DNA from: Verrucomicrobiota bacterium
GTDB taxonomy: Bacteria; Verrucomicrobiota; Verrucomicrobiia; Limisphaerales; PALSA-1396
DNA: 64,000 nt
Direction: 5' to 3'
Assembly: GCA_016200005.1 (NCBI GenBank)
Contig: JACQFP010000066.1
Span: 13,578 to 77,577, forward strand
The notes under the pieces were generated by a model. The model searched no databases. It was given only the letters and a program-made list of their open reading frames with translations, and was not told the DNA's origin. Position 1 is the stretch's first letter. The number at the start of each line of letters is the position of its first letter. Below, in pieces: positions 6,672 through 61,600 of this stretch. The translations under genes were made by a program, and so were the position numbers.

Positions 6672-10033
<3,362 letters not shown>

Positions 10034-10110: not shown

Positions 10111-10187
10111 GCGTCGGTAGCTCAATTGGATAGAGCTTCTGACTTCGGATCAGAAGGTTACAGGTTCAAGTCCTGTCCGACGCACCA
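10111..10187 (+). tRNA. tRNA-Arg (anticodon TCG), CCA encoded
   Basis: Acceptor GCGTCGG/CCGACGC. Anticodon arm TCTGA-CTTCGGA-TCAGA. T-arm CAGGTTCAAGTCCTG. Confidence 0.9.
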
Positions 10188-13516: not shown

Positions 13517-13538
13517 AAAATAGTTGTTGTCTTGTCGT

Positions 13539-15266
13539 ATGAAAAAACTGGCAAAGGTTTTATTGGCCTGTCTTCCGGGGATATTTGCATTGGTGGTTCA
13601 CGCGCAAAGTCCGTTCTCGGTCTTGCCGCGCGCGGAATTCAATAACGGTGGAGTGGTGGTGCAGGTTGCGTTTGATTTTCCGACCAACCACGTTCTGTAC
13701 GCGGACAAACTTCACCTGGAACTTTCCGGCCAGGAGTCGCCGGCCACGTTCAATCTGGCCGAACCACGACTCGTTCAGGACAAGTTCAGTGGCAAACAGA
13801 AGCGCGTGTTCACTCAGCCGTTCAAGGCGAGTTGCGAATTGGCTGCAGTGCCGTCAGCCAATCTCATGCTGAAGGTTCATTTACAAGGTTGCGACGAGGC
13901 GAATTGTTTCTTCCCGGAAGATAAGATGTTTACGATCACTCCGGGCGGTTCGATTACCGAGGTTGACTTGCCCCGTGGAGTAGCGGTGGGTTCATCGCCG
14001 AGAGTGGGTGGTGGCTTTACTCCACGGGGCGAGCCGGCAGAAGCAAGTTTCTCGGCGGCACCACGCGAATGGCGTGCATTGGCGGAAGGTTTCACCGTGG
14101 CGGATCGCGGCAGCGGTTACATGAACGAAAAGGAGTTCCTCGGATTTCTCAACAAGGCCCAATCCGGCCAGGTGGTGGCAGAGACGCAACAAACTCGGAG
14201 CGGATTCCTGGGTGTGCTGCTGACCATGTCGCTGATCTTGCTCGGCGGCGTGGCGCTGAATCTTACGCCGTGCATTCTGCCGATGATCCCGATCAATCTC
14301 GCCATCATCGGGGCGGGCGCGCAGGCGGGATCGAAGCGGCGCGGATTTGCCTTGGGCGCCACGTACGCCGCGGGTATGGCCATCGCTTACGGTGTGCTGG
14401 GTCTGTTCGTTGTCCTGACCGGCTCGAAGTTCGGCACGCTGAATTCGTCGCCCTGGTTCAATCTCGGCATCGCCATAGTTTTCGTGCTCTTGGCACTCGC
14501 CATGTTCGACGTGGTTTCGATTGATCTTTCCCGTTTTCAAAGTGGATCAACGCGCAACTCCGCCGCGTCCAGAAGCAAATTTGTCGTGGCTTACACCATG
14601 GGAACCGTCGCTGCGTTGCTGGCCGGCGCGTGCGTGGCGCCGGTCGTGATTTCCGTGTTGCTTCAAGCGACGGCGTTGCACGCCAAAGGTCTTACCATTG
14701 GTCTGCTGCTGCCGTTTCTCCTCGGCGTCGGCATGGGTTTGCCCTGGCCGTTTGCCGGTGCGGGACTTTCATTCTTACCCAAGCCGGGCAAATGGATGAT
14801 GCGGGTGAAATACGGGTTTGGCGTAATGATTGTTCTTTTTGCCGCGTACTATGGTCATCTGGCATTCGGTCTTTTCCAATCCGAATCAATGATCCTGGCT
14901 CGCGCAGCCGGCAAGTCTGCGGATGAGACCGAAGTCTTCAGCGAACGGTTAACTCAGGCGTTGCGCGAGTCCCGCACCGATGGTCGGCCGGTGTTCATCG
15001 ATTTCTGGGCGAGTTGGTGCAAGAACTGTTCCGCGATGGAGCATACGACATTTGCCTCGGCGGCCGTGAAACGTCGTCTCGCTGATTTCCATGAAGTGCG
15101 TCTGCAAACCGAGAGGCCCAATCAAGCTCCTGCCAAAGAGGTGCTCGACCACTTCAAGGTGATGGGATTGCCGTCCTTTGTCGTATTGACGCCAAAGAAT
15201 TCCAACTCGTCACCTGTGGCTAAATCCGCAGTCACCGCAGTTGTATCGCGGCGTGCCGATGATTAA
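13539..15266 (+). CDS. DsbD-like thiol:disulfide interchange protein (N-terminal periplasmic domain, CcdA-type membrane core, C-terminal thioredoxin)
   Basis: LNLTPCILPMIPINL membrane-core motif, multiple TM helices, C-terminal FIDFWASWCKNC. Confidence 0.85.
   Translation: MKKLAKVLLACLPGIFALVVHAQSPFSVLPRAEFNNGGVVVQVAFDFPTNHVLYADKLHLELSGQESPATFNLAEPRLVQDKFSGKQKRVFTQPFKASCELAAVPSANLMLKVHLQGCDEANCFFPEDKMFTITPGGSITEVDLPRGVAVGSSPRVGGGFTPRGEPAEASFSAAPREWRALAEGFTVADRGSGYMNEKEFLGFLNKAQSGQVVAETQQTRSGFLGVLLTMSLILLGGVALNLTPCILPMIPINLAIIGAGAQAGSKRRGFALGATYAAGMAIAYGVLGLFVVLTGSKFGTLNSSPWFNLGIAIVFVLLALAMFDVVSIDLSRFQSGSTRNSAASRSKFVVAYTMGTVAALLAGACVAPVVISVLLQATALHAKGLTIGLLLPFLLGVGMGLPWPFAGAGLSFLPKPGKWMMRVKYGFGVMIVLFAAYYGHLAFGLFQSESMILARAAGKSADETEVFSERLTQALRESRTDGRPVFIDFWASWCKNCSAMEHTTFASAAVKRRLADFHEVRLQTERPNQAPAKEVLDHFKVMGLPSFVVLTPKNSNSSPVAKSAVTAVVSRRADD
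13966..14034. repeat. Family B palindromic element, copy 1 (intragenic, in frame, 23 codons)
   Basis: GCCCCGTGGAGTA (13970-13982) and TACTCCACGGGGC (14018-14030) are perfect reverse complements separated by 35 nt. Flanks GACTTG / GAGCC match the other copies. Confidence 0.8.
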
Positions 15267-15289: not shown

Positions 15290-18200
15290 ATGAAGATTAT
15301 CAAGCTTCCCTCTTTGTTATTGACGGCTGCACTGCAAGTTCTGCCAATTACTCGCGTGTTTGTCGCCACGAGTCCGGCGACTGGATCGAGCTTTGCCATC
15401 GTTTCGACCTGGATCGCCGGTGCTGTCGCGCTGCTGGGCAGTTACGATGCGATGTCCGGAGCTTCAACTGTCATCACCAGTCCCAAGACTGCAACCGCAA
15501 CAAACGGTGTGCCGTTTTCTTACCGGATCACCACGGGGCCGGAAGTGGCAAATACTTTTGCCGCGACTCCGTTGCCTCCTGCTCTCACCGTCAGCAGCAC
15601 CTCTGGAAGAATTACCGGAACACCGACGGTGGATGGAGTGTTTGTCATCCATCTGACAGCTTCCGACAACAACATGCCGAGTCGGACGGTCACAGCCGAC
15701 CTCTCTTTGACAATCCTTCCGCCGGTCACAAGTGGAACCGCACCATCAATCACTTCGCAACCGACTAGCCAGACGGTGACGGCGGGTGGCAACGCAACTT
15801 TTAGCGTCACTGCTACAGGGACCGCGCCGTTGAGCTATCAATGGCGGTGGAACGGAACAAGTCTTGGTGGTGCCAATGGTGCGACGCTGAATCTCACCAG
15901 TGTTACCACCAACCAAGCCGGCACATATACCGTGTTGATCAGCAACTCAGTTGGCTCGGTCACCAGCAGCTCGGCCATCCTGACCGTAAGCCCGGCCGCC
16001 GTTGCTCCCGCGATCGCGACGCAGCCGGCGAGTCAGACGATAACCGAAGGCGGCAACGCAAGTTTCAGCGTCACTGCCACTGCCACGGCGCCTTTGAGCT
16101 ATCAATGGCGGTTGAATGGGGCAAATCTTGGAGGAGCCAACGGCGCGACGCTGAACTTGACCAGCGTCACCACCAACCAAGCAGGCACTTACACTGTGTT
16201 GATCAGTAGCTCAGCCGGCTCGGTCACCAGCAGCCCGGCCATCCTGACGGTAATCCCGTTGACTGTAGCTCCGACGATCACAACGCAACCGGCCAGTCAG
16301 ATGGTCACGGCGGGTGGGACCGCAACTTTCAGTGTCGCCGCCACCGGCACGGCACCATTGAGTTATCAATGGCGGTGGAATGGGTCGAATCTCGGCGGTG
16401 CAACCGGTTCGACATTGAACCTGACTGGTGTGACCACCAATCAAGCCGGTAATTATACGGTGATCGTCAGCAACATGGTCGGATCGGTCACCAGCACTCC
16501 GGCCATCCTCACCGTGAATCTGGCGGCGGTGGCCCCGACCATCATGACTCCTCCGGCGAATCAGACCGTAAACGCGGGTGGGAACGCAACTTTCAGTGTC
16601 ACCGCCGCGGGCACCGCGCCGTTGAGCTATCAATGGCGGTTAAATGGATCGAATCTTGGCGGTGCAACGAGTTCGACAGTGAATCTGAACGGCGTGACCA
16701 CCAACCAAGCCGGCGCTTACACCGTAGTGGTGAGTAATCCAGCCGGCTCGGTCACTAGCAGTCCAGCCATCCTAACCGTAAACTTGGTGGCCCCGACCAT
16801 CACGACCCAACCAGCCAATCAGAACGTGACGGCAGGCGGTAACGCAACTTTCAGCATTACCGCCGCGGGCACCGCGCCGTTGAGTTATCAATGGCGGTTA
16901 AATGGATCGAATCTTGGCGGTGCAACGAGTTCGACAGTGAATCTGAGCGGCGTGACCACCAACCAAGCCGGCAGCTACGCGGTGCTCGTCAGCAACCCGG
17001 CCGGTTCGGTGACCAGCAGTCCGGCCGTGCTCTCCGTCACCGTCGTTGTGGTAAATCACGCGCCGACAATCTCAGCGATCGCGAACCAGACTGTCTTGAT
17101 GGACATGGTAACCGCACCAATCGCATTCACGATCAGTGACCTCGAGACGCCGGCGGCGAATCTCTCGCTTGCCGCCAGTTCAACCAACGAAAGCCTTTTG
17201 CCAGCGACAAGCGTCGTCTTCGGCGGAAGCAGCAGCAATCGCACGGTGACGCTAACACCGTCGGCCGGCCAGTTTGGTAACACGGAGATCACGATTGTGG
17301 TGAGTGATGGCAGCGCCACCGCAGCCATCAAATTCCTGTTGAGTGTGCAACCGCCGGTCATTTCGACCAATCAACTGACCCTCATCAAGAATGGATTGGG
17401 AAGCGTGACACCGGACTTGACCAAAACGCTCCTGACCCTCGGTCGAGTTTACACCATCACCGCCATTCCTGACGCCGGTCAGTTGTTCGCCAATTGGAGC
17501 GGGAGTCTCGCCTCATCCTCACCGACGATCAGTTTTCTCCTGACTTCAAATCTTGTGCTCCAGGCCAACTTCATCCCAAGTCCCTATCCTTCCGCCCAAG
17601 GCGACTACGCCGGTTTGTTCTATGAAAATGATGCGGTGCGACAGTCGAGCGCCGGCTTCTTCACGGCATCGTTGACGTCGCGCGGCACATATTCCGGCAG
17701 TCTGCAGATGGGCGCAAACCGTTACTCCTTCAACGGCCAATTCAATCTTCCGGGTCAGGCCACCAGCGTCATCGCCCGTTCCGGCGACAACCCTTTGACC
17801 ATGGACTTCCAGATCGGTGTCGGATCTCAGTCCGATCAAATCACCGGCCGCGTCACTGACGGCAAGTGGGTTTCACCATTGCTTGGCCATCGGGCCGTGT
17901 TTAATTCCAAAACCAGACCGTCACCGTACGCGGGCCAATACACACTGGTCATCCCTGGACGCGCCAACGATCCGTCCGTTCCGGCTGGCGATGGTTTCGG
18001 CAGCGTGCGCGTTGACAGCAGCGGCAAACTGAAGTTTACCGGCTTGCTGGCTGATGGTACCAAAATCAGCCAGGGCGTTGGCCTCTCGAAAAATGGTCTC
18101 TGGCCGCTGTACGTCCCGCTCTACTCTGGTCAAGGCTCGCTGGTAAGTTGGCTCACTTTCACCAACCAGCCCAAGAGTGATCTGAAAGGCACCGTTAGTT

Positions 18201-18592
18201 GGATCAAGCCCGCCAATCGGAACTCGCGGCTTTATCCGAATGGCTTTAACCACGGCTGCGAAGTGCTCGGCTCGGTTTACACCGCGCCGGTCGGCGGCAG
18301 AGGCCACGTGTTGAACCTCGCCAATGCCTCGGTGATGTTCAGCGGTGGAAACCTGGCTTCGAGCTTCACCAATGCCGTGACGATGGCGTCGAACAATCGG
18401 GTCGCCAATCTGAGCGCCAATCGTCTGTCACTGATTTTCTCCAGTGCGACGGGGACGTTCAAGGGCAGCGTGGAAGATCCAGCGAGCAGGGCCACGTGGA
18501 CCTTCAGCGGTACCGTATTGCAGAAACTCAACGTCGGCTGTGGCTTCCTGCTCGGCAACAACCAGAGTAGTCAAGTCGGCATCGCGCCGTAA
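15290..18592 (+). CDS. Secreted protein with multiple Ig-like domains
   Basis: Signal peptide, a putative-Ig segment (FSYRITT...GRITGTPT), then five SYQWR(W/L)NG Ig repeats, a cadherin-like segment and a large C-terminal domain. Confidence 0.85.
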   Translation: MKIIKLPSLLLTAALQVLPITRVFVATSPATGSSFAIVSTWIAGAVALLGSYDAMSGASTVITSPKTATATNGVPFSYRITTGPEVANTFAATPLPPALTVSSTSGRITGTPTVDGVFVIHLTASDNNMPSRTVTADLSLTILPPVTSGTAPSITSQPTSQTVTAGGNATFSVTATGTAPLSYQWRWNGTSLGGANGATLNLTSVTTNQAGTYTVLISNSVGSVTSSSAILTVSPAAVAPAIATQPASQTITEGGNASFSVTATATAPLSYQWRLNGANLGGANGATLNLTSVTTNQAGTYTVLISSSAGSVTSSPAILTVIPLTVAPTITTQPASQMVTAGGTATFSVAATGTAPLSYQWRWNGSNLGGATGSTLNLTGVTTNQAGNYTVIVSNMVGSVTSTPAILTVNLAAVAPTIMTPPANQTVNAGGNATFSVTAAGTAPLSYQWRLNGSNLGGATSSTVNLNGVTTNQAGAYTVVVSNPAGSVTSSPAILTVNLVAPTITTQPANQNVTAGGNATFSITAAGTAPLSYQWRLNGSNLGGATSSTVNLSGVTTNQAGSYAVLVSNPAGSVTSSPAVLSVTVVVVNHAPTISAIANQTVLMDMVTAPIAFTISDLETPAANLSLAASSTNESLLPATSVVFGGSSSNRTVTLTPSAGQFGNTEITIVVSDGSATAAIKFLLSVQPPVISTNQLTLIKNGLGSVTPDLTKTLLTLGRVYTITAIPDAGQLFANWSGSLASSSPTISFLLTSNLVLQANFIPSPYPSAQGDYAGLFYENDAVRQSSAGFFTASLTSRGTYSGSLQMGANRYSFNGQFNLPGQATSVIARSGDNPLTMDFQIGVGSQSDQITGRVTDGKWVSPLLGHRAVFNSKTRPSPYAGQYTLVIPGRANDPSVPAGDGFGSVRVDSSGKLKFTGLLADGTKISQGVGLSKNGLWPLYVPLYSGQGSLVSWLTFTNQPKSDLKGTVSWIKPANRNSRLYPNGFNHGCEVLGSVYTAPVGGRGHVLNLANASVMFSGGNLASSFTNAVTMASNNRVANLSANRLSLIFSSATGTFKGSVEDPASRATWTFSGTVLQKLNVGCGFLLGNNQSSQVGIAP
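15740..17044 (+). repeat. Five tandem coding repeats, period about 258-264 bp (Ig-like domains)
   Basis: Repeat starts at 15740, 16004, 16268, 16532 and 16790 (APxIxTQP...). 16628..16688 is identical to 16886..16946. Confidence 0.9.
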
Positions 18593-21818: not shown

Positions 21819-22085
21819 GGTTTTGGGTTTTTGTTTTTTTTGGACTTATTGGAGCAAGATTAGCATGGCGATGGCGGTCCCGCACAATACCTCAATTGAG
21901 GTATGAGTCGGTGCACCCCTTCGGAGGCGGGCAAGGGGTTGGTCGGCGGTTTCCGTCCAGTGGATAATGGAATTTACAACGGCAGGATGCAGTCGAAACG
22001 GATCGTGGCATTGGCGCCGCCGAACACCAACACAACCGCGGAGAATGAAAGCTCATACTGTTTGCCAAAATTAATTTTCGGATTG

Positions 22086-22147
22086 CCCCTCACCCCTTCC
22101 CTCTCCCCATCCGATGGGGAGAGGGTGGTCGAAGACCGGGTGAGGGG
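22086..22147. repeat. Nested hairpin repeat (SPSDGER family)
   Basis: Outer CCCCTCACCC / GGGTGAGGGG arms enclose the inner palindrome CCCTCTCCCCATC-CGATGGGGAGAGGG. Confidence 0.8.
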
Positions 22148-25645: not shown

Positions 25646-28600
25646 TTATCTGATTGCGGACGCCTGCAGCGGAATTTTGAAAGTGACCATCGTGCCCTTT
25701 TCCACGTTGCCGGTCAGCTCACAACAACCTCCAAGCTGCTGCAACCGCCGCTGCATATTGTCCAATCCGTCCGCCCCGTTCCGCTGGCGCGGAGCGTCTG
25801 GAGTCAGTCCGCAGCCGTTGTCGCTGACCGTTACCGCGAGCGTTCCGTCGTTGGCGGCAATGCCAAGCCACAAATCCGTCGCACCGGAATGTTGCACGAC
25901 GTTGCTGAGCGCTTCCTTGAACGCGAGGAACAGGCTGTGGCGTTGTTCGGCGTTCAGCGGCGCAGCCGGGAGGTCCCTGGCCACGTCCAGATGGCACCGC
26001 ACGGACGTCGCCTTCATAAAATGCTGCGCAAACTGGCAAAAGTAGCTGGCCAGCGACGACACATTGTCGTGCTTGGGATTGACGGCCCAGACAATTTCGT
26101 CCAGCGCGGTCACCATCTCGCGCGCCCGCGTGCCGATCTCCCGTGTGTGTTCGCGCACTTCGTCCGGGCCGAGCGCCGCGTCTTGCGCCAATTCGCTGCC
26201 AAAGTTGATTTCGACAAGTCCCGCGCCCAAATCGTCATGCAGGTCCTGCGCGATGCGCGTCCGCTCGCGCTCTAAGACCTGCTGCTGTTCCAGCCGCTCG
26301 AGCTTGCGCCGATACCGCCGCCGCATGCCCAGCAACACTCCGCCGCCCAACAGGCCAGCGGCGGATGCGGCCGCGGTCACACGGAACCAAACCGCCTCCC
26401 ACAGATGCGGCACGACCGTGAGTGCGACCGAGGCACCGACTTCATTCCAAATTCCGTTTTGGTTGCAAGCGGTCACGCGGAAGCGGTAGTCCCCGGGAGG
26501 AATGTGGGGGTAACGCGCGATCCGCACAGCGCCGGCATCCACCCAGTCCTGATCCAAGCCCACCAGTTGGTAACGGAAAGTCACGTTCTCCGGCGACGCC
26601 AGACTCAACGCCGTGAATTCAAATCCCATGCGGTTGACTCCGGGACCGAGACGCAACGGAGTCGGAAGCTCGCCCCGTGGGATGACAGCGCCGGCCTCCG
26701 GCTCGGTACTGCGTGCGCCTATCCCACGGGGCAAGCGCAAGCTGGCTGGAGCCGGCTCATTGGTCAGGCCGGGTCGACCCAGGGTATCATAAGTGGCGGC
26801 AATCTGACCGTTGACCGTCAGGCGTTCGATGATGACCGGTGGTGGCAGCGGGTTTTTGCGAAGGGAATGTGGTTCGACTATTGCCAAGCCGGTCAGCATG
26901 GGCATCAGTAAGCGACCATCCCGGGTGCGACTGGCAACGGGACAGATTCCAAAAGCGGCCTGCAAGTTGGGCACGCCTTCCCCGCGTCCCAAGATCACGG
27001 ACTTCACGCGCGAAGCGCGGCCCTCGGCCACGGCTGCCAGCTCGGACCGAGCGATCCGAAAAATGCCCCGATTGCCGGCGATCCATAGCCGACCAAGATC
27101 ATCGGAAAGAATTTGCGAGACGTATTCGTCCCACAAACCGTGCTCGGTGCGGAACTGAAAATAACGTCCGTTCTTCAGCCAGCCCAATCCTTGTCCGACA
27201 AAACCAAACCAGAGGCTGCCATCGCTGGTTGCCTGCAAACAACGGATGTGTTGCGGGCCGCTCATGATATTCGTGGTCTCATCGATGATTGCATCCTGGT
27301 GAACGCGTAGCAGCAGGCCATCAGAAGTAGTGCCCATCCACAAATCGCCGCTGGCGTCCTCGGCCATGGTGCGAACATCGCTGGCCCCGTCGGGCAATGG
27401 AAAATACCTCAGACTGCCGTCGTACAAACGGAGGCGGGCCACGCCGGCATTGACGGCGATCCACAGATCCCCGTTGGTGCTGATGTAAAGGGCGCGGATG
27501 GAGAGATCCGTCAATTGATGATTGAGGGCCAGAGGGACAAAAGCGCCGTTCTGATGCCGAAAAACTCCCTTCTCCCGCGTGCCGACGAGAACGTCGCCGT
27601 GGAGATCGGCGGCCACGCAGGCAACTCGTCCGCCACGCCAACCGCCGTTGTTCGAAACCAGATGCCAGACGCTGTTGCTCCGACACGCCAGCGCTCCGTT
27701 TTGCCCCGCCGCCCAGAGCGTGCCCGTCGCATCCTCACAAGCGGACTGGACGGCGGCGAACGGCAGACCGGCCGCCGGGCCCACGAGTTGCACCGCGCGA
27801 GGACTCAGACGATTGAGGCCGCCGCCGCGGGTGCCGACCCAGAGATCGCCTTCGGAGTCCTCAGAAATGTTTGTGATGATCGGATTCGAAGTGCCCACAC
27901 TTTGGATGCCTTGCGAATCATATCGAAAGAGTCCGTCCGACGCGGTGCCCATCCATAAGCCGCGAGCCTTATCTTCATACAACGCGGTCACATCCGCCTC
28001 CGTGCGCCCGGGTTCAAGCTTCAGTTCTGCGACTGCCGCCAATTTGCTCCCCTCGTGATACCGATACAATTTCAAGCCCGAGCAAAGCCAGATGCCGCCT
28101 TGCCGCGCCGCGGCCAGGCGGGTGGATTGCCGCCCCAAGGTTAACAAAGTCACGAAGCGGCCGTTCCGAAATACGCCCACGCTGCCGGATTGAGAAAACC
28201 AGAGCTGGCCCTGGACGTCGGTCGTCAGCCAACAGAAACCTTGTTCAGCCAGTCCATCGGCCGTTCCAAAGCCCTGCACTTTTCCCGCTTGAATCCGGAA
28301 AACGGCACCGGCGCTGACACTGACCCAAATGCTCCCGTTTCCATCCTCGGCCATGGCCCGGGCTTGCGACCCTGGTAATGTCCCCGTCAAAGCAAAAACC
28401 TGTGTAACCCTGCCCTCATCCACGCAGATGACCGCTCCGCCGTCCTTTGCCAGCCACAATCGACCGCGCCGATCCAGCAGCATGGCGCGGATCTGCGCCG
28501 CGGTCCCGGCGGGCATGGCCGGGGCGAATTCCTGGAACCGCACCCCATCAAACCGGGCCAGCGCCCGATGCGTGGCGACCCACAAATAACCGTCGGGTGT

Positions 28601-28765
28601 TTGCTCCAAACCAACAATCGTGTGCTCCGGCAAGCCGTCCTCCGTCTGCCAGACGCGGGCGAACCATGCCGGATCCGTAGCCGCGCCCAGTGGGAGGGAG
28701 AAGAAAATCAAAATCAGACCTGCAAATCGCCACCAAGGGAAATGGCAAATCATCGGCTTGAACAC
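25646..28765 (-). CDS. Sensor histidine kinase with periplasmic two-component-regulator propeller/Y_Y_Y region, HisKA_3 and HATPase_c
   Basis: Repeated G.LW.GT..GL propeller motifs, a TM segment, RIAQDLHDDLGAGL (H-box) and a C-terminal ATPase with DNGCG. Confidence 0.9.
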   Translation of the reverse strand: MFKPMICHFPWWRFAGLILIFFSLPLGAATDPAWFARVWQTEDGLPEHTIVGLEQTPDGYLWVATHRALARFDGVRFQEFAPAMPAGTAAQIRAMLLDRRGRLWLAKDGGAVICVDEGRVTQVFALTGTLPGSQARAMAEDGNGSIWVSVSAGAVFRIQAGKVQGFGTADGLAEQGFCWLTTDVQGQLWFSQSGSVGVFRNGRFVTLLTLGRQSTRLAAARQGGIWLCSGLKLYRYHEGSKLAAVAELKLEPGRTEADVTALYEDKARGLWMGTASDGLFRYDSQGIQSVGTSNPIITNISEDSEGDLWVGTRGGGLNRLSPRAVQLVGPAAGLPFAAVQSACEDATGTLWAAGQNGALACRSNSVWHLVSNNGGWRGGRVACVAADLHGDVLVGTREKGVFRHQNGAFVPLALNHQLTDLSIRALYISTNGDLWIAVNAGVARLRLYDGSLRYFPLPDGASDVRTMAEDASGDLWMGTTSDGLLLRVHQDAIIDETTNIMSGPQHIRCLQATSDGSLWFGFVGQGLGWLKNGRYFQFRTEHGLWDEYVSQILSDDLGRLWIAGNRGIFRIARSELAAVAEGRASRVKSVILGRGEGVPNLQAAFGICPVASRTRDGRLLMPMLTGLAIVEPHSLRKNPLPPPVIIERLTVNGQIAATYDTLGRPGLTNEPAPASLRLPRGIGARSTEPEAGAVIPRGELPTPLRLGPGVNRMGFEFTALSLASPENVTFRYQLVGLDQDWVDAGAVRIARYPHIPPGDYRFRVTACNQNGIWNEVGASVALTVVPHLWEAVWFRVTAAASAAGLLGGGVLLGMRRRYRRKLERLEQQQVLERERTRIAQDLHDDLGAGLVEINFGSELAQDAALGPDEVREHTREIGTRAREMVTALDEIVWAVNPKHDNVSSLASYFCQFAQHFMKATSVRCHLDVARDLPAAPLNAEQRHSLFLAFKEALSNVVQHSGATDLWLGIAANDGTLAVTVSDNGCGLTPDAPRQRNGADGLDNMQRRLQQLGGCCELTGNVEKGTMVTFKIPLQASAIR
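26668..26736. repeat. Family B palindromic element, copy 2 (intragenic, in frame)
   Basis: GCCCCGTGGGAT (26672-26683) and ATCCCACGGGGC (26721-26732). The core is 61 bp, the same length as copies 1 and 3. Confidence 0.8.
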
Positions 28766-29227: not shown

Positions 29228-29302
29228 GACCCTATGGTCTAGCGGTTAGGACACCACCCTTTCACGGTGGTAGCCCGGGTTCGATTCCCGGTAGGGTCGC
29301 CA
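29228..29302 (+). tRNA. tRNA-Glu (anticodon TTC), CCA encoded, copy 1
   Basis: Acceptor GACCCTA/TAGGGTC. Anticodon arm CCACC-CTTTCAC-GGTGG. T-arm CCCGGGTTCGATTCCCGG. Confidence 0.92.
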
Positions 29303-29386: not shown

Positions 29387-30703
29387 GTGGCAAGCTGCGC
29401 CGCAATCATGGCAAGATCATCCGAACGCGGCAAAAAGCCCATCGAGCAATACGATCACAAGGGCAAGAAGCGCGCGAACAATCCGCTTGCCCACGAAGCC
29501 GAAGGCGTGGGCAGCGGTTTCCGTTACAAGACCGTCCCGCACGTCACGCTCAAGAGCATCGCCAACAATGAAGCGGCGGATCAGGAGACGCTTTACGACC
29601 AGCCGCTCGTGGACAATTCCAAGACCCGCGTGACCGGGCCGTTCACGGTGGAAGCCGTCCCCGCGCCGATGGTGAAGTCGCTGGATGAGGTGGCGGGGGA
29701 GAGCGCCGCTTCCCCTGAACCTCGTAGCAGCGGACGTGAGTCCGCTCCATCTTCCGCCGGAAAAAGTCAGAGCCGACTCACGTCGGCTGCTACGAATCAA
29801 GAGTTCACCGCCGATGCCTCGGTCGCGCGCAGCGGCGAGACGGTGCGGCAGGACGAGTGGCGCAGCGAGTTGCTCCGCGCCGGCATCCGCGGCAAGGGCG
29901 GGCAGATGATTCGTTTCTCCCGCGTCGAACCGCTCTCCGGCACACGCTGGCTTCATGCCGACGCCGAAACCAAAGTGAACGATGACGGGGTGGACAAGTT
30001 GCGTGAAGGAGCGGCGACCGAGCGTCAGCGCGTCGTGATTTCCTTCGGGCCGGAGCACGCGCCGCTGGAGCAAAAGCAGGTCGAACGCGCTTACGAGGAG
30101 TCGAAGACGCTCGTGCCCCGCCCGCAGATTCTCATCTTCGCCGCGTTTCAATTCGACCCGGAAGCGGCCAAGGACATTGACGAGACGAGGATTCCCGGCA
30201 TCACGCTGTTGAAGCCGCAGATGAACGCGGATTTGCTCACGGAAGATTTGAAGAAGAAGCGCACGAGCAACGAAAGTTTCTGGCTCATCGGCCAGCCGGA
30301 CGTGCGGCTGCGCCAATGCAAAATTAAAAATGAAAAATTAAAAAAGACGAAAGCCGGTGCGGAGCAACTGTGGGAAGTCGAGGTGGCTGGGTTTGATTAC
30401 TACGACACGAAGACCGGGCAGATCGTGTCGGGCGGCGCGGCGCAAATCGCGGTCTGGATGCTCGACACAGATTATGACGGGCGGAGTCTGTTTGCGCGGC
30501 AGGTGTTCTTCCCGATGGCCGGGGACAAGGAGGGCTGGTCAAAACTGGCGAAGAATCTCAAAGCGGAGATTGACGAGACGGCGATTGAAGCCTACCGCGG
30601 CACCGTGTCGTTGCCGTTCGCGCCGGGCAAGCATGGCCGCGTGGCGGTGAAAATCGTGGACGACCGGGGGATTGAGAGTTTGAAGATTCTGGAACTGGCG
30701 TGA
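29387..30703 (+). CDS. C-terminal region of a type III-like RM methyltransferase (Mod) without a catalytic domain; probable remnant
   Basis: GFRYKTVPHVTLKSIANN...ETLYDQP...RVTGPFTVEAVPAP and terminal GRVAVKIVDDRGIES resemble Mod C-terminal regions. No (D/N)PP(Y/F) or FxGxG motif anywhere in the 438 aa. Confidence 0.55.
   Translation: MASCAAIMARSSERGKKPIEQYDHKGKKRANNPLAHEAEGVGSGFRYKTVPHVTLKSIANNEAADQETLYDQPLVDNSKTRVTGPFTVEAVPAPMVKSLDEVAGESAASPEPRSSGRESAPSSAGKSQSRLTSAATNQEFTADASVARSGETVRQDEWRSELLRAGIRGKGGQMIRFSRVEPLSGTRWLHADAETKVNDDGVDKLREGAATERQRVVISFGPEHAPLEQKQVERAYEESKTLVPRPQILIFAAFQFDPEAAKDIDETRIPGITLLKPQMNADLLTEDLKKKRTSNESFWLIGQPDVRLRQCKIKNEKLKKTKAGAEQLWEVEVAGFDYYDTKTGQIVSGGAAQIAVWMLDTDYDGRSLFARQVFFPMAGDKEGWSKLAKNLKAEIDETAIEAYRGTVSLPFAPGKHGRVAVKIVDDRGIESLKILELA
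29724..29793. repeat. Family A double-hairpin palindromic element, copy 2 (intragenic, in frame)
   Basis: GTAGCAGCGGACGTGAGTCCGCTC CCATCT...AGTCAGAG CCGACTCACGTCGGCTGCTAC. Confidence 0.8.
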
Positions 30704-31748: not shown

Positions 31749-31922
31749 ATGGCGACGAAAGGCATCACCCACCTCATCGTCAATTCGCCCTACGACGAGC
31801 CGAAGCATCACTGGCAGTATCACCGGGAGACGCAGAAGTTTTCGCTCAAGGCCGGGCGTCGCCCGGCGGGTTACGTCATCGCGTCGGAAAGTTCCAAGGC
31901 GTTCGACGACCCTACAGTTTAG
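31749..31922 (+). pseudogene. 5-prime remnant (57 codons) of a type III restriction Res/helicase gene, cut off by tRNA-Glu copy 2
   Basis: MATKGITHLIVNSPYDEPKHHWQYHRETQKF...GRRPAGYV resembles Res N-termini from memory. The ORF runs into the tRNA and stops at TAG 31920-31922. Confidence 0.45.
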
Positions 31923-31982
31923 CGGTTAGGACACCACCCTTTCACGGTGGTAGCCCGGGTTCGATTCCCGGTAGGGTCGCCA
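31908..31982 (+). tRNA. tRNA-Glu (anticodon TTC), copy 2; differs from copy 1 at positions 8, 9 and 12
   Basis: Identical to copy 1 except TG GTCT becomes CA GTTT. The U8-to-C change may impair function. Confidence 0.75.
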
Positions 31983-43780: not shown

Positions 43781-44027
43781 GTCTGGCGCAGGGGGTCTTC
43801 CAACATCTCGATGAGCGGCCACACGGCGGATGCCGGACGCGGGGGCGCGTCCAGCGACGCCCGGGGCGGGCGTGATCCCCAGCGTCGAACTTCGGGTTAA
43901 ATCTACCTCCACCGCCGCGTAACCCACGCTTGCGTTAGGCGCAAATCTTTCCACCATCCTGTCACACTGATAGAATTCAGAAAAAACGTTGTCGGAATTC
44001 GGCGTCGGTGGACGTTTAATAGATGAG

Positions 44028-45338
44028 ATGCAGGAAAAATCAGATGTCGAACTGCTGCGGGAATACACCGCCGGGGCCAACGAGGCCGCGTTCCGTGAGA
44101 TTGTCACCCGGCACGCGGACCTCGTCTATGCCTCGGCGTTGCGGCAGGTAAGCTCACCGGAGCTGGCGCGCGACATCGCCCAAACCGTTTTCTCCCATCT
44201 CGTGCGCAAAGCTCCGGCGCTGGGGAAGACCCTGGCAGACAATGCCTCACTCGTCGGCTGGCTTTACCGCACCACCCGCTACGAGGCGAACACGCAGATG
44301 CGGGACAACCGCCGGCGTCAGGCGCGCGAAAGGCAGGCTATGGAAAATTTCGATTCCAATTCCGAAACCGCGACCGAATGGGAACGGATCGCCCCCATGC
44401 TTGATGAAGCAATGGCCGACTTAAGCGACGAAGACCGCGACGCGCTGCTGCTGCGCTTCTTCAAGAACCATGATTTCCGCGCCATCGGCGTGACTCTCGG
44501 TGTGAGTGATGATGCCGCGCAGAAACGGGTCAGCCGCGCGCTGGAACGGCTGCGCGCCGAGTTCAACCGCCGGGGCGTGACCACCACCGCCGTCGCGCTT
44601 GCGACCGCAGTTTCCGCCAATGCGGTTGCCGTGGGACCGGCCGGTCTGGCCACCACACTTTCGACCGCCGCCCTTGCCGGAACCACGATCGCTATCAACA
44701 CAACTGCAACCGTAACCAAGGCCATCGTTATGACTACACTGCAAAAGACTTTGATCGCGGCAACCGTCGTTGCCGCCGTCGGCACGGGAATCAACGAAGC
44801 CCGCCAAGCTTCAACGTTGCGAAGCCAAGTTCAAACGCTCCAGCAACAACGCGCCCCAATCGCGGAGCAAATCCAGCAACTGACCAAAGACCGCGACGAC
44901 GCCAAACACCAACTCGCTGCGTCGCGCGACGAGAACGAACGCTTGAACCGCAACACCGCCGAACTGTTGCGGCTGCGCGGTCAGGTCGGAGTACTTCGGC
45001 AGGCGGAGCAGGAAAACGCTCGCCTGAAAGCGGAGAGAGACAATCTGGCGAAAAGGCTTCAGCAGGCATCAGGTACCACACAAGCCGGGATGCCCCTGGA
45101 TGTAATCTCATTCAAAGGGAATTCAATATTCACCGAGGCCGAGCTAGCGAGAATCCTTATTTCGAGAGTGGGAGAGACATTGGACCAGCAAAAGCTGGAT
45201 ACGGACGTCTTGGAGATTTCGAAGTTGTATCGGGGAGCTGGTTACCCCGCCATTCAAGTTCTTGCTGTGGAGAAGCCTGAAGAATCATCAGGAAGAACCA
45301 CGGTCACGTTTGTGGTGAAGGAAACGCCGCCGAAATGA
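44028..45338 (+). CDS. ECF-type sigma-70 factor fused to a TM region, a coiled coil and a POTRA-like C-terminal domain
   Basis: LLREYT...AFREIVTRHADLVYASALR (region 2), DRDALLLRFFKNHDFRAIGVTLGVSDDAAQKRVSRALERLR (region 4), Ala/Thr-rich hydrophobic segment, heptad-like segment, then VISFKGNSIFTEAELARIL...LDTDVLEISKLYRGAGYPAIQV...VTFVVKE. Confidence 0.8.
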   Translation: MQEKSDVELLREYTAGANEAAFREIVTRHADLVYASALRQVSSPELARDIAQTVFSHLVRKAPALGKTLADNASLVGWLYRTTRYEANTQMRDNRRRQARERQAMENFDSNSETATEWERIAPMLDEAMADLSDEDRDALLLRFFKNHDFRAIGVTLGVSDDAAQKRVSRALERLRAEFNRRGVTTTAVALATAVSANAVAVGPAGLATTLSTAALAGTTIAINTTATVTKAIVMTTLQKTLIAATVVAAVGTGINEARQASTLRSQVQTLQQQRAPIAEQIQQLTKDRDDAKHQLAASRDENERLNRNTAELLRLRGQVGVLRQAEQENARLKAERDNLAKRLQQASGTTQAGMPLDVISFKGNSIFTEAELARILISRVGETLDQQKLDTDVLEISKLYRGAGYPAIQVLAVEKPEESSGRTTVTFVVKETPPK

Positions 45339-45391
45339 GTCTTCTCCACCGCCGTATCTTACCCATTTGAAACACATCCGTATTCGGGCCT

Positions 45392-45631
45392 TTAGCCGAT
45401 CACGCAGATGCTGGTCACGTCGCTCCATTGGCCGACTTGTTCGTTGTTGAGGCGGTAGATGGCTTTGTATTTCCAGACCGCGCTCGTCCCGGCAGCAGGC
45501 AATGCTGCGGTGTCCAGATAATCGGGCACGGTGTCGATGGCCAGGCACGCGAACACGCCATCGCCGCGGTCCACGTGGATTTCGAGAATGTCCCTTCCGA
45601 ATGATCTCGTTGAACTGCGCTTGCATCTCAC
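45392..45631 (-). pseudogene. Possible remnant of an FN3-like domain gene
   Basis: ILEIHVDRGDGVFACLAIDTVPDYLDTAALPAAGTSAVWKYKAIYRLNNEQVGQWSDV. No credible N-terminal half, and it abuts the palindromic element at 45683..45770. Confidence 0.3.
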
Positions 45632-45682
45632 CTATTAAACGTCCGCGCCCCGCGTAATCCGACAAAGTATTTTCAAAAAGCA

Positions 45683-47838: not shown

Positions 47839-47984
47839 CCCCTCACCCTCACCCTCTCCCCATCGGATGGGGAGAGGGAACGCTTTCGCGCGTATGGACG
47901 ACACGCACCGTTCGGTGATTCGCCGCGACGTCGCCGGAGTTTCACCCTCTCCCCGTCGGACGGGGAGAGGGCCGGGGTGAGGGG
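47839..47984. repeat. Composite SPSDGER-type repeat: two inner hairpins between one pair of outer arms
   Basis: CCCCTCACCCTCA + CCCTCTCCCCATC-GGATGGGGAGAGGG (47852-47878) ... CCCTCTCCCCGTC-GGACGGGGAGAGGG (47945-47971) + GGGGTGAGGGG (47974-47984). Confidence 0.8.
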
Positions 47985-48017
47985 CGTATTCAACTCGATG
48001 GTTCCGGCTTAAATGCT

Positions 48018-48665
48018 ATGCCCACCGATTGGGAAGCCCGCTATCAGACCAACGACATGCCTTGGGAAAAGGGCGAGGCGTCGCCGGGACTGGTCGATTT
48101 TCTGGCGGCGCATCCAGCCCTCAAACGCGGCACGGTTTGTGTGCCCGGCTGCGGCACCGGCCACGATGTGCGCGCCTGGGCGCGCGCTGGTTTCACGGCG
48201 GTGGGTTACGATCTAGCGCCCAGCGCCATCCGGCTCTCCATCGAGCGCACCAAAGCGGCGGGATTATCGGCGCAATTTCAACTCGTCGATTTTCTGCGCG
48301 ACTCGCCCCGTGGAATAGGCGACGCATCAAGTTCTCTGCGTGCTGTTGCTGGTATTCCACGGGGCAAGCCGCCACAGTTGTTCGATTGGCTGTTTGAACA
48401 CACACTGTTTTGCGCGATTGATCCGAGTGAGCGCGACGAGTACGTGCGTGCCGTGCTGCGCTGGCTTAAACCCGATGGTCAATACCTGGCGGTGAATTAC
48501 CTGATTCCAGACAAGGACGGGCCGCCGTTTGGCACGACGCGGGAAGAATTGTGGCAACGATTCTCGCCGCACTTCGATCTGATGCAGGAATGGGTCCCCC
48601 GCTCGTATCCCAATCGCACCGGCTTGGAATTGATGCTGTGGTGGCGACGAAAGAAGTCAGCGTAA
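48018..48665 (+). CDS. SAM-dependent methyltransferase (thiopurine S-methyltransferase-like)
   Basis: WEARYQTNDMPWEKGEASP...VCVPGCGTGHDVRAWA..GF.AVGYDLAPSAI...LFCAIDPSERDEYV. Confidence 0.75.
   Translation: MPTDWEARYQTNDMPWEKGEASPGLVDFLAAHPALKRGTVCVPGCGTGHDVRAWARAGFTAVGYDLAPSAIRLSIERTKAAGLSAQFQLVDFLRDSPRGIGDASSSLRAVAGIPRGKPPQLFDWLFEHTLFCAIDPSERDEYVRAVLRWLKPDGQYLAVNYLIPDKDGPPFGTTREELWQRFSPHFDLMQEWVPRSYPNRTGLELMLWWRRKKSA
48301..48369. repeat. Family B palindromic element, copy 3 (intragenic, in frame)
   Basis: GCCCCGTGGAATA (48305-48317) and TATTCCACGGGGC (48353-48365), separated by 35 nt. Flanks GACTCG / AAGCC. Confidence 0.8.
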
Positions 48666-60336: not shown

Positions 60337-60591
60337 TCATTTGCGTTCCTCTGCGGTTGAAATTCTCTGCCAAAATTCTTCCAGCTCATCCGGGCCGAAA
60401 TCGGCGAGGACTTGGCCGTCCACTTCGAGGACGGGCGCGAGGTCCTGATCGGAGAGGCGGACCATTTCGTCCCAGGCGGCGTCGCTGGCCATCACGTCAA
60501 TCGTTTCGTATTCGATCCCGCGCGTGTCGAGCCAGCGCATCGCTTTATGGCACCAGCCGCAATACGGTTTGATGAACAAACGGATTTTCAT
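60337..60591 (-). CDS. Glutaredoxin-like protein (NrdH/Grx fold)
   Basis: MKIRLFIKPYCGWCHKAMRWLDTRGIEYETIDV (CxxC). Confidence 0.8.
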   Translation of the reverse strand: MKIRLFIKPYCGWCHKAMRWLDTRGIEYETIDVMASDAAWDEMVRLSDQDLAPVLEVDGQVLADFGPDELEEFWQRISTAEERK

Positions 60592-61186: not shown

Positions 61187-61254
61187 GTGGGCGTCGAGGT
61201 GACAAGACTCAAATTGAAACAGAAAAGTTAGAGACTCCTCACGTCGTCTCCTAC
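61187..61254. repeat. Family A-related palindromic element, copy 4 (intergenic; provides the stop codon of the truncated grx copy)
   Basis: Gene-strand GTAGGAGACGACGTGAGGAGTCTC ... GAGTCTTGTCACCTCGACGCCCAC. Compare GTAGCAGCCGACGTGAGTCGGCTC. Confidence 0.6.
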
Positions 61255-61352
61255 CATTGAAGGCCGCGTGTGTGGAGCCAGCGGATAGCTTTGTGACACC
61301 AGCCGCAATACGGTTTGATGAATAGGCGAATGTTATGTGGCGACGCTTTCAT
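61251..61352 (-). pseudogene. Truncated 5-prime copy of the glutaredoxin-like gene (33 codons)
   Basis: MKASPHNIRLFIKPYCGWCHKAIRWLHTRGLQW-stop. Its ATG overlaps the stop of the upstream membrane-protein gene (ATGA at 61349-61352). Confidence 0.7.
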
Positions 61353-61600
61353 GTCGGCCATTCGATACCAGCCAACCAGCCACCGATACACACCATCATC
61401 AACCCCGTTGTGGACATTGCAAAGGGCTTGAATGTGGTTTTCAAGTTTAGCAACAAGAAAACAATATCGACTGGTGGCAAGAACAAGCAGCCAAAAAACC
61501 ACCAAAGGCTACGTTTGTAAGCCACGGTCAAAAACATTACATCTCCGACCAGCGCGGCAAGGAGTCCAAGAAAAAGCAGGATGTATCCTGAAATCACCAT
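61349..61600 (-). CDS. Small hydrophobic membrane protein (hypothetical)
   Basis: 83 aa with three hydrophobic helices, located between gcvH and the grx fragment. Confidence 0.55.
   Translation of the reverse strand: MVISGYILLFLGLLAALVGDVMFLTVAYKRSLWWFFGCLFLPPVDIVFLLLNLKTTFKPFAMSTTGLMMVCIGGWLAGIEWPT

Follow-up and report, generated by a model that had tools for sequence, protein, structure and literature searches.

Short palindromic elements inserted in frame in genes of a Verrucomicrobiota bacterium

A stretch of 64,000 nt from a Verrucomicrobiota bacterium (GenBank assembly GCA_016200005.1, contig JACQFP010000066.1; positions 13,578 to 77,577), the whole of which is here called the window, was found to carry three copies of a short palindromic element, located inside genes for a DsbD-like protein, a sensor kinase and a TPMT-like methyltransferase. 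The three copies had been reported in an earlier note, made from the sequence alone, and all of them are present where it had placed them, with the pattern CCCCGTGGNNT-N25..45-ANNCCACGGGG giving 3 matches in the window against 0.00 expected (100 shuffles). Each has the form GCCCCGTGGRRTA-N35-TAYYCCACGGGGC, in which the perfect reverse-complement arm is 13 nt (GCCCCGTGGRRTA) as first described, and each is in frame in a long open reading frame (ORF) with a product containing the expected Pfam domains. The host genes and the inserted units, delimited by the comparisons with orthologues given below, are as follows.

13524..15266, + strand: host gene 1, DsbD-like thiol:disulfide interchange protein (Pfam DsbD_N, DsbD_TM, Thioredoxin_7)
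13968..14030, + strand: copy 1, inserted unit of 63 nt, TT plus the 61-nt core GCCCCGTGGAGTA-N35-TACTCCACGGGGC, encoding LPRGVAVGSSPRVGGGFTPRG; flanked by GAC (13965-13967) and GAG (14031-14033) in the DsbD-like gene
25646..28765, - strand: host gene 2, sensor histidine kinase that contains Y_Y_Y domains and a two-component regulator propeller (Pfam Reg_prop, Y_Y_Y, HisKA_3, HATPase_c)
26672..26734, - strand (coding strand): copy 2, inserted unit of 63 nt, TT plus the core, between CGC and GAG, encoding LPRGIGARSTEPEAGAVIPRG
48018..48665, + strand: host gene 3, TPMT-family S-adenosylmethionine-dependent methyltransferase (Pfam TPMT)
48303..48365, + strand: copy 3, inserted unit of 63 nt, TC plus the core, encoding SPRGIGDASSSLRAVAGIPRG; flanked by GAC (48300-48302) and AAG (48366-48368) in the TPMT-like gene

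A covariance model derived from 39 family members detected only these three copies in the 64 kb, at 56-66 bits. The next scores in the window (17.7 bits or lower) belonged to other palindromes or to noise, the 17.7-bit match being a different palindrome, and no degenerate copies were found in the window either with up to 3 mismatches or by the covariance model. Every copy was predicted to fold into a stem of 16-17 bp with a loop of ~35 nt (z ~-5 to -6), with both strands alike. The interiors of the three copies could not be aligned with one another and have diverged, as had been observed previously, and the PRG…PRG peptides quoted for them, together with the TAG in a neighbouring frame of every copy, were found to be correct.

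Copy 1 is located in the linker between DsbD_N (the periplasmic N-domain; residues 35-134) and DsbD_TM (the membrane domain; residues 227-436), copy 2 in a variable stretch immediately N-terminal of the Y_Y_Y match, and copy 3 in a loop, predicted to be disordered, located between two strands (86-91 and 122-128) in an AlphaFold model obtained for the TPMT-like protein. This model (mean pLDDT 85, pTM 0.84) is confident except at residues 99-114 (pLDDT <50), which fall inside the insert and form a coil between two Rossmann-fold strands. Judged from these predictions, the inserts look like tolerated surface loops, with no sign of a gained function.

Filled and empty orthologues were compared at the DNA level, and insertion was identified at four independent sites, namely in the TPMT, DsbD and sensor kinase genes and in the gene for an NAD-dependent epimerase found in other genomes. 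At all four sites the net gain amounts to 63 or 66 nt, with an invariable xxC^G(A)G junction and no direct repeat. In each window copy, the 63 nt (21 codons) gained consist of TY and the 61-nt core, which lie between the C and G of xRC^GAG. The element is a discrete unit with a specific target, (G/C)RC^GAG(CC), of which there is no duplication, and the two extra bases (TY) are found on one side only. The C and GAG of the target pair with the G and TY-side bases of the element, which makes the palindrome appear longer than what was inserted, and the C…GAG of the target lengthens the hairpin stem to ~16 bp. The 23 codons that had been assigned to each copy are right for the span of the palindrome, whereas the comparison with orthologues gives a net insertion of 21 codons (63 nt). 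Similarly, the CTY and RAG flanks do lengthen the stem, yet part of this extension is target sequence.

At the TPMT site, where the window has GAC-TC[GCCCC…GGGGC]-AAG CCG, the empty sites read CGT GAC|GAG CCG (L107) and GAT|GAA CCG (L105), and a relative with 92% identity (L106) is filled and carries one stem mutation. Beyond the closest relative (91-92% identity, filled), the TPMT relatives share at most 88% identity, are 192-194 aa in length and are without the segment, and in the alignment, residues at the insertion are otherwise seen only in P0002 (91-92% identical), with a copy that reads SLRG. For the DsbD-like protein, 11 orthologues were without the segment (empty sites GAT|GAG CCT in L108 and GAC|GCG CCC in L109), and the same was true of 58/58 of the closest orthologues of the sensor kinase (CGC|GCG CTG in L190 and CGC|GGT GCT in L191). 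The PRG…PRG or APW…STGR peptide pattern was found among 360 homologues only in the window's own three proteins. The comparison with orthologues that had been proposed as a check on the element thus shows each copy to be a lineage-specific insertion, as ~360 homologues of the host families are without the segment except for the window's three proteins and P0002. The window's three copies are thus recent lineage-specific insertions.

[quoted passage not shown] Terminal inverted repeats, small size, a lack of coding capacity, dispersed copies, subfamilies and spread across genomes would all be accounted for in this way. However, DDE transposition generates direct target-site duplications, and these are absent in 4/4 filled/empty comparisons. 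The TY extra bases are one-sided, and no full-length IS with these ends was found among the loci examined, making a MITE origin very unlikely. Known bacterial MITEs (Correia/NEMIS, ERIC, Nezha and others) are 70-300 bp in length, with target-site duplications and occasional in-frame intragenic copies (PMC10969869). The window family resembles them in its terminal inverted repeats, small size and non-autonomous nature, and differs in that target-site duplication was tested and found to be absent.

The search for further copies elsewhere that the earlier note had suggested was performed with the pattern GCCCCGTGGRNT-N22..52-ANYCCACGGGGC in 185,579 species-representative genomes, and many were found (104 matching loci, with ~90 further copies of the family), mostly in Verrucomicrobiota of Limisphaerales/Pedosphaera type. 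The core lengths are sharply bimodal, with 51 copies of 61 nt and 28 of 64 nt, and a few of 62 or 63 nt. The mobile unit can be written 5'-TY-GCCCCGTGGRRTA-(35 or 38 variable nt)-TAYYCCACGGGGC-3', with a length of 63 nt and a 66-nt variant. Bases outside the search pattern are also conserved, with C in 89/91, T in 79/91 and Y in 89/91 copies at positions -3 to -1 and the same mirrored on the opposite side, such that the 91 copies give a flank consensus of (G)(G)C-T-Y preceding the core and R-A-G-C-C following it, and the target consensus is GGC^GAGCC. An A follows RRT in 82-86/91 copies. The inverted repeat of 13 bp is near-invariant, and its two variable arm positions are complementary in 80/82 copies (AA/TT in 37, GA/TC in 22, AG/CT in 19 and GG/CC in 2). 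The -1/+1 pair is mismatched about half of the time (22/44 genic and 15/38 non-genic copies), a rate that would be expected if one side of the pair belonged to the element and the other to the target. Position 13 of each arm, the first base inside the loop, was also inspected in intragenic copies, where 2 pairs are Watson-Crick, 14 are G·T, 19 are A·C and 9 are other combinations. This is far fewer pairs than expected by chance and hints at a conserved closing mismatch.

Some of the loci carry titles that would place them outside the Verrucomicrobiota. A spread across phyla as implied by the titles 'Bifidobacterium', 'Acidoferrum' and 'Limnocylindrales' was considered and rejected, as the contigs concerned are 80-90% identical to Verrucomicrobiia contigs. 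Titles naming Bifidobacterium/Bifidobacteriaceae, Acidoferrum or Limnocylindrales are attached to L012, L014, L015, L035, L038, L047, L068, L071, L072, L080, L089, L092, L098 and L103, and seven of these (L012, L014, L038, L068, L071, L072 and L092) are ~78-88% identical to Verrucomicrobiia/Verrucomicrobiota contigs over flanks of 200-860 nt. Most of the other loci with doubtful titles share assemblies with these, and some carry genes of Planctomycete/Verrucomicrobia type. The taxon labels of these metagenome-assembled genomes (MAGs) look wrong. Copies of 63-64 nt that may be real, none of them classed as intragenic, were found in small sets in Binatia, in a deltaproteobacterial MAG, and in WOR-3/Stahlbacteria and Omnitrophota. 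Short hairpins (46-51 nt) from Streptomyces and others were taken to be unrelated.

No more than ~9 perfect copies were found per GTDB representative. Against this maximum, the presence of 3 copies in 64 kb suggests that the element has expanded in the lineage of the window. An Rfam search of the window at the gathering threshold, and of the copy 1 region at E <=10, returned only tRNAs and meaningless miRNA-like matches. The pattern scan had 0 matches in viral contigs, blastn found no match in PLSDB plasmids, and a search of the accessible literature with the arm sequences recovered unrelated primers only. The palindrome family appears to be undescribed so far, though gene-dwelling palindromes as such are known.

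The coding context was assigned for 107 copies, 46 of which (~45%) are confidently intragenic, inside Pfam-supported genes. The tabulation of intragenic and intergenic copies called for in the earlier note thus revealed a length bias in genes, though roughly half of the copies are not confidently intragenic, being located between genes or at gene ends, or not callable. Pfam domains were found on both sides of the insert in, among others, an NAD-epimerase, a sigma factor, a glycoside hydrolase of family GH2, PSCyt/PSD1 proteins, a glutamate-synthase-like oxidoreductase and an ABC ATPase, and also in radical SAM enzymes, a sulfatase, a GH32 protein, a PAS kinase and a rhamnosidase. The intragenic copies of the family all have a core of 61 or 64 nt, and the 44 confidently intragenic copies with such a core all correspond to units of 63 or 66 nt. 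Cores of 60, 62 and 63 nt were seen solely outside genes that were called with confidence (Fisher p = 0.0007; 0.012 with events as the unit of counting). Within genes, the unit length is a multiple of three (3n).

The 46 intragenic copies are read in the frame GCC-CCG-TGG (rel0, LAPW…STGR) in 25 cases and in the frame CCC-CGT-GG (rel1, PRG…PRG) in 20, and the lone copy in the third frame (rel2) is atypical, with 59 nt. When orthologues were collapsed, ~11 LAPW…STGR and ~16 PRG…PRG independent events remained, and both orientations were represented. The claim that PRG is the sole frame in which the element is read does not hold, as ~11 of ~27 independent intragenic insertions use the GCC-CCG-TGG frame and both orientations occur. 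Each strand has two usable frames, of which PRG is one, and the occurrence of PRG in 3/3 window copies is not significant. Most copies have a TAA or TAG stop in the third frame. Among non-genic copies, the frames in the two usable phases were open in 129 of 152 cases, against 105 of 152 from shuffled interiors.

The use of two frames effectively refutes a peptide-motif reading, in which a PRG…PRG peptide would be selected at the protein level, for example as a protease site or binding loop, and the palindrome would be a by-product. All of the window copies are read as PRG…PRG, which favours such a reading. However, LAPW…STGR is read in ~40% of independent intragenic insertions, on either strand, and many copies are non-coding. 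The interior of the filled epimerase alleles is near-neutral at all codon positions (nucleotide diversity, π, of 0.28, 0.23 and 0.46 at positions 1, 2 and 3) and the segment is predicted to be disordered. Selection for the peptide is extremely improbable.

Several copies provide evidence of movement. The interior subtype of copy 2 was found in four contexts, namely the window sensor kinase gene, a GH32 gene (L065 and L068), an ABC ATPase gene (L014, L049 and L081; opposite orientation) and a non-coding repeat of ~190 bp that is multi-copy in one MAG, so that both orientations are represented. As one interior subtype occurs in four unrelated contexts, the element has moved between genes by copy-and-paste. 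For each of two other interior subtypes, the reading frame changes from one gene to another (L007 versus L066, and L082 versus L086). The element also targets itself, as tandem head-to-tail copies joined as …GGGGC-TC-GCCCC… were found at L002 (561-670) and L026 (1880-2004), and such joins would follow if GGC^G, its own 3' junction, served as a target. Nested copies, with one element within the loop of another, were found at L051 (6775-6896) and L078 (6575-6696), and copy number varies strongly among related genomes. An arm variant with a compensatory change, GCCCCGTGAAATA…TATTTCACGGGGC, was noted among the nested and tandem copies.

The ~190-bp repeat that contains the hairpin has a coding-like tail (…RFYQVVVP*) and is present in at least 5 copies in MAG CAYIIH01, and also in others. 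It was located at L009 (345-525), L011 (6970-7340), L041 (65-260), L070 (2440-2810), L085 (1000-1370) and L069 (950-1320), and could represent either a composite mobile unit or the duplicated 3' end of a gene.

Of the matches in the genome scan, 12 represent one orthologous site in a 342-aa NAD-dependent epimerase. Eighty relatives of this protein (L110-L189) were taken from metagenomes of peat and soil samples, avoiding the ascertainment by perfect arms, and the site was found to be filled in 22, empty in 48 and occupied by a different insert in 10. The filled allele reads CTC|GCCCC…GGGGCGA|GCC AAA, which is GGC^GAG on the other strand, and the empty allele reads CTC GCC AAA. The different insert (L119, L135, L137, L139, L141, L145, L160, L163, L168 and L169) is structured, GC-rich and mostly 63 nt in length (GGTGGGTGCGCCGCTGCCGCGGCGCACCGGCGGCGCGGCAGCGCCGCCGCCACC…), and lies at exactly the same codon junction, ~160 nt into the gene. 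It is not present in the window. In the epimerase gene tree the three states are interspersed, and alleles that are closest to one another, at 6-10% divergence, are often in different states, indicating a rapid change of presence and absence at this hot spot. Distances in the gene and in the interior are weakly correlated (Mantel r = 0.23, with 61/2000 permutations as high).

The π values of the filled epimerase alleles differ between the parts of the element, with 0.02-0.06 in the arm cores (9 nt each) and 0.33 in the interior overall, while the flanking gene has 0.09, 0.05-0.07 and 0.26-0.34 at codon positions 1, 2 and 3, respectively. As the interior is near-neutral at all codon positions, the loop is almost unconstrained, whereas conservation of the arms extends to the nucleotide level, even at third codon positions. 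Some epimerase alleles have decayed arms, and compensatory double changes were found in L149 and L116, with further compensatory changes that keep pairing in L051 and L074.

Conserved arms could also arise if the palindrome were a host-selected structured motif (a DNA cruciform, a protein-binding site or an mRNA structure) that is spread by recombination and kept by purifying selection. The stems, even at their third codon positions, are as conserved as codon positions 1 and 2 of a conserved enzyme, while the loop drifts, and the compensatory double changes in L149, L116, L051 and L074 and the arm covariation in 80/82 copies agree with this proposal. On the other hand, empty alleles are interspersed with filled ones, indicating that the motif is dispensable, and the copies are found in unrelated host genes, in both orientations and at non-coding sites. 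Copy number is strongly variable among related genomes, nested and tandem copies occur, and Rfam has no matching family. Sense-strand mismatches comprise 31 G·U against 43 A·C, which gives no sign of selection for an mRNA hairpin, and the mRNA-hairpin form of this explanation was rejected for lack of a G·U excess. A host-selected motif is considered unlikely.

The palindrome is probably a small, non-autonomous, site-specific mobile element that is tolerated inside genes and mobilised by an enzyme of the HUH type. The core idea of the earlier note, a mobile palindrome tolerated in frame, is supported by the homologues without the segment, the many copies elsewhere and the strong length bias. 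The unit lies between the C and G of (G/C)RC^GAG(CC), without target duplication. Because the unit length is 3n and each strand has two stop-free frames, an insertion in a coding region adds an unconstrained loop of 21 or 22 residues, predicted to be disordered, and the host gene is not killed. Insertions in the third phase, which would run into TAR stops, are not seen. An enzyme encoded elsewhere would recognise the hairpin and cut single-stranded DNA 3' of GGC/GRC, the trinucleotide found immediately 5' of both junctions. Mobilisation would follow the HUH/Y1 'peel-and-paste' route, as in RAYT (REP-associated tyrosine transposase), TIRYT and IS200/IS605 systems, and precise excision would restore the target. 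Only copies with intact arms would excise and reinsert, so that filled alleles would be renewed while loops drift and dead copies decay. An HUH/Y1-like mechanism is suggested by the absence of duplication, the two extra bases on one side, GGC/GRC before both junctions, the hairpin as the sole conserved feature and the apparently precise loss.

Several points weigh against this interpretation. The HUH mechanism is inferred from the anatomy of the sequences, namely the absence of duplication, the specific target and GGC before both junctions. A Pfam search of the 141 ORFs adjoining non-genic copies revealed no recurrent transposase family and no RAYT or TIRYT, and in ~1 Mb of loci no gene was flanked by half-sites, the orphan half-sites being tandem or nested copies. 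No obvious transposase candidate is encoded in the window, and a few copies are without the CTY/RAG flanks. The genome scan needed perfect 9+3-nt ends, so that decayed copies are under-counted. The coding context was assigned using a home-made codon log-odds model trained on long ORFs of the loci, with no gene caller, and the epimerase tree is a simple neighbour-joining tree, calculated with the insert removed and without support values. The patchy epimerase pattern could have come from recombination between lineages rather than from excision and reinsertion, and the conservation of stems in orthologous copies could reflect a host-level function rather than turnover.

The Rickettsia palindromic elements (RPEs), which the earlier note had given as the precedent, provide a fair functional analogy but are a different family. 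In the portions of PMC10969869 and PMC3733652 that draw on Ogata et al. 2000, RPEs are ~100-150 bp in length, are reported from Rickettsia and can be aligned throughout within a family. As described there, they are like the window element in being dispersed palindromes in unrelated protein-coding genes, in frame and with the host protein intact, that also occur between genes (PMC10969869, PMC3733652). The in-frame palindrome in functional genes is seen in the three window copies and in ~27 independent insertions, whereas the size and whole-length alignability of RPEs are not. The window element has 63 or 66 nt, with a 13-nt conserved arm and a variable loop, and its interiors mostly cannot be aligned. 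Its target, C^GAG, is a defined one, and it is found in free-living Verrucomicrobiota, though it is set apart here on the descriptions of RPEs and not on their consensus sequences. A transposase is known for neither.

The suggestion that such elements had no description for a genome of the Planctomycetes-Verrucomicrobia-Chlamydiae (PVC) type was superseded, as intragenic palindromic repeats, though of another family, have already been described in a verrucomicrobium. In Opitutus terrae, repetitive extragenic palindromes (REPs) with a GTAG tag are frequently found inside ORFs, where they encode 20-30 residues (PMC3733652), and intragenic palindromes are thus not new for a PVC genome. Like REPs and REPINs, the window family consists of short GC-rich hairpin repeats, often seen as inverted pairs, with spacers alike in length and not in sequence, and the mobility of REP/RAYT systems, too, is thought to proceed by a single-strand HUH mechanism without target duplication. 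However, the window element is without a GTAG or CGTC tag, its ends being CTY-GCCCC…/…GGGGC-RAG, and GTAG is only incidental in the family, where the AG subtype has it as part of GGAGTAG. Self-complementarity, a property of the REP unit of 20-40 bp, is absent from the half-site GGCTYGCCCCGTGGRRTA, and the whole 61-64 nt form one hairpin. The repeat motif of TIRYT systems is GGGGWSAS (Di Nocera et al., PMC3733652). It resembles the end of the window family, GGGGCRAG, at 7/8 positions, which is a lead and not a test.

The window element resembles IS200/IS605 elements in its insertion 3' of a short specific target without duplication, and in the hairpin recognition and precise excision that would be expected, and a specific short target without duplication (xRC^GAG) was found at four sites. 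The left and right ends of IS200/IS605 elements differ, both have a hairpin of their own, and the cleavage sites are set apart from the foot of the hairpin. In contrast, the window element is a single symmetric hairpin with both junctions at its base, and no Y1 transposase is linked to it. Palindromic amphipathic repeat coding elements (PARCELs) are likewise coding DNA with dyad symmetry that is translated in several contexts, but they are 25-residue amphipathic units in tandem arrays and dedicated ORFs. The window family is made up of single inserts of 21-22 residues, unconstrained in sequence, in housekeeping genes, and tandems are rare.

A further step would be that a transposon lineage has adapted to gene interiors, such that the 3n length, the two stop-free frames per strand and the stop-carrying third frame have evolved, and that it is active, with a hairpin-specific single-strand enzyme new to repeat families. 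This is possible but doubtful. If true, a gene-adapted lineage would insert at C^GAG and excise precisely from it, resulting in reversible surface loops of enzymes and sensors in natural populations.

We know of no mobilising enzyme or insertion rule for RPEs, and the question of how they enter genes has been open since their description in 2000. The window family offers what RPEs have not, namely an exact unit (63 or 66 nt) and an exact junction, C^GAG, without duplication, together with many pairs of filled and empty alleles in public metagenomes and a hot spot that flips among near relatives. The exact unit, junction, allele pairs and hot spot make the mechanism of insertion and excision testable, both computationally and in vitro. 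The family also represents a natural catalogue of enzyme loop positions that tolerate ~21 extra residues and, in annotation, accounts for the odd 'PRG' or 'APW…STGR' inserts that Verrucomicrobia proteins of particular lineages carry.

The window contains further repeats that belong to other families. Hairpins with a GTAG tag are arranged in inverted pairs (TCGTAGCAGCGGACGTGAGTCCGCTC … GAGCCGACTCACGTCGGCTGCTACGA) at 9375-9466, 29722-29795 and 61221-61255, and form a separate REP/REPIN-like family, which suggests that a RAYT may be encoded in this genome as well. A third palindromic repeat, CCCTCTCCCC-ATCGGAT-GGGGAGAGGG with CCCCTCACCC flanks, is present at 22085-22127, 47839-47880 and 47943-47985, with two copies just upstream of the TPMT-like gene, and gives a weak match to the covariance model. 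ORFs at 60.3-61.6 kb were considered as a transposase and rejected, as they are duplicated glutaredoxins. These glutaredoxin-like ORFs (60337-60591 and 61251-61505, both on the - strand) are 85% identical over 71 nt, with a repeat of GTAG type between them. An inverted repeat of 53 nt at ~43980-45674 was rejected as an IS, as it flanks a sigma-70/POTRA ORF. Five tandem repeats of 264 nt (67-79% identity) at 15740-17089 lie in a 1100-aa ORF (15290..18592) and correspond to repeated Ig-like domains. A gene for tRNA-Arg(UCG) is located at 10111-10187, and a near-identical pair for tRNA-Glu(UUC) at 29228-29302 and 31908-31982, 2.7 kb apart.

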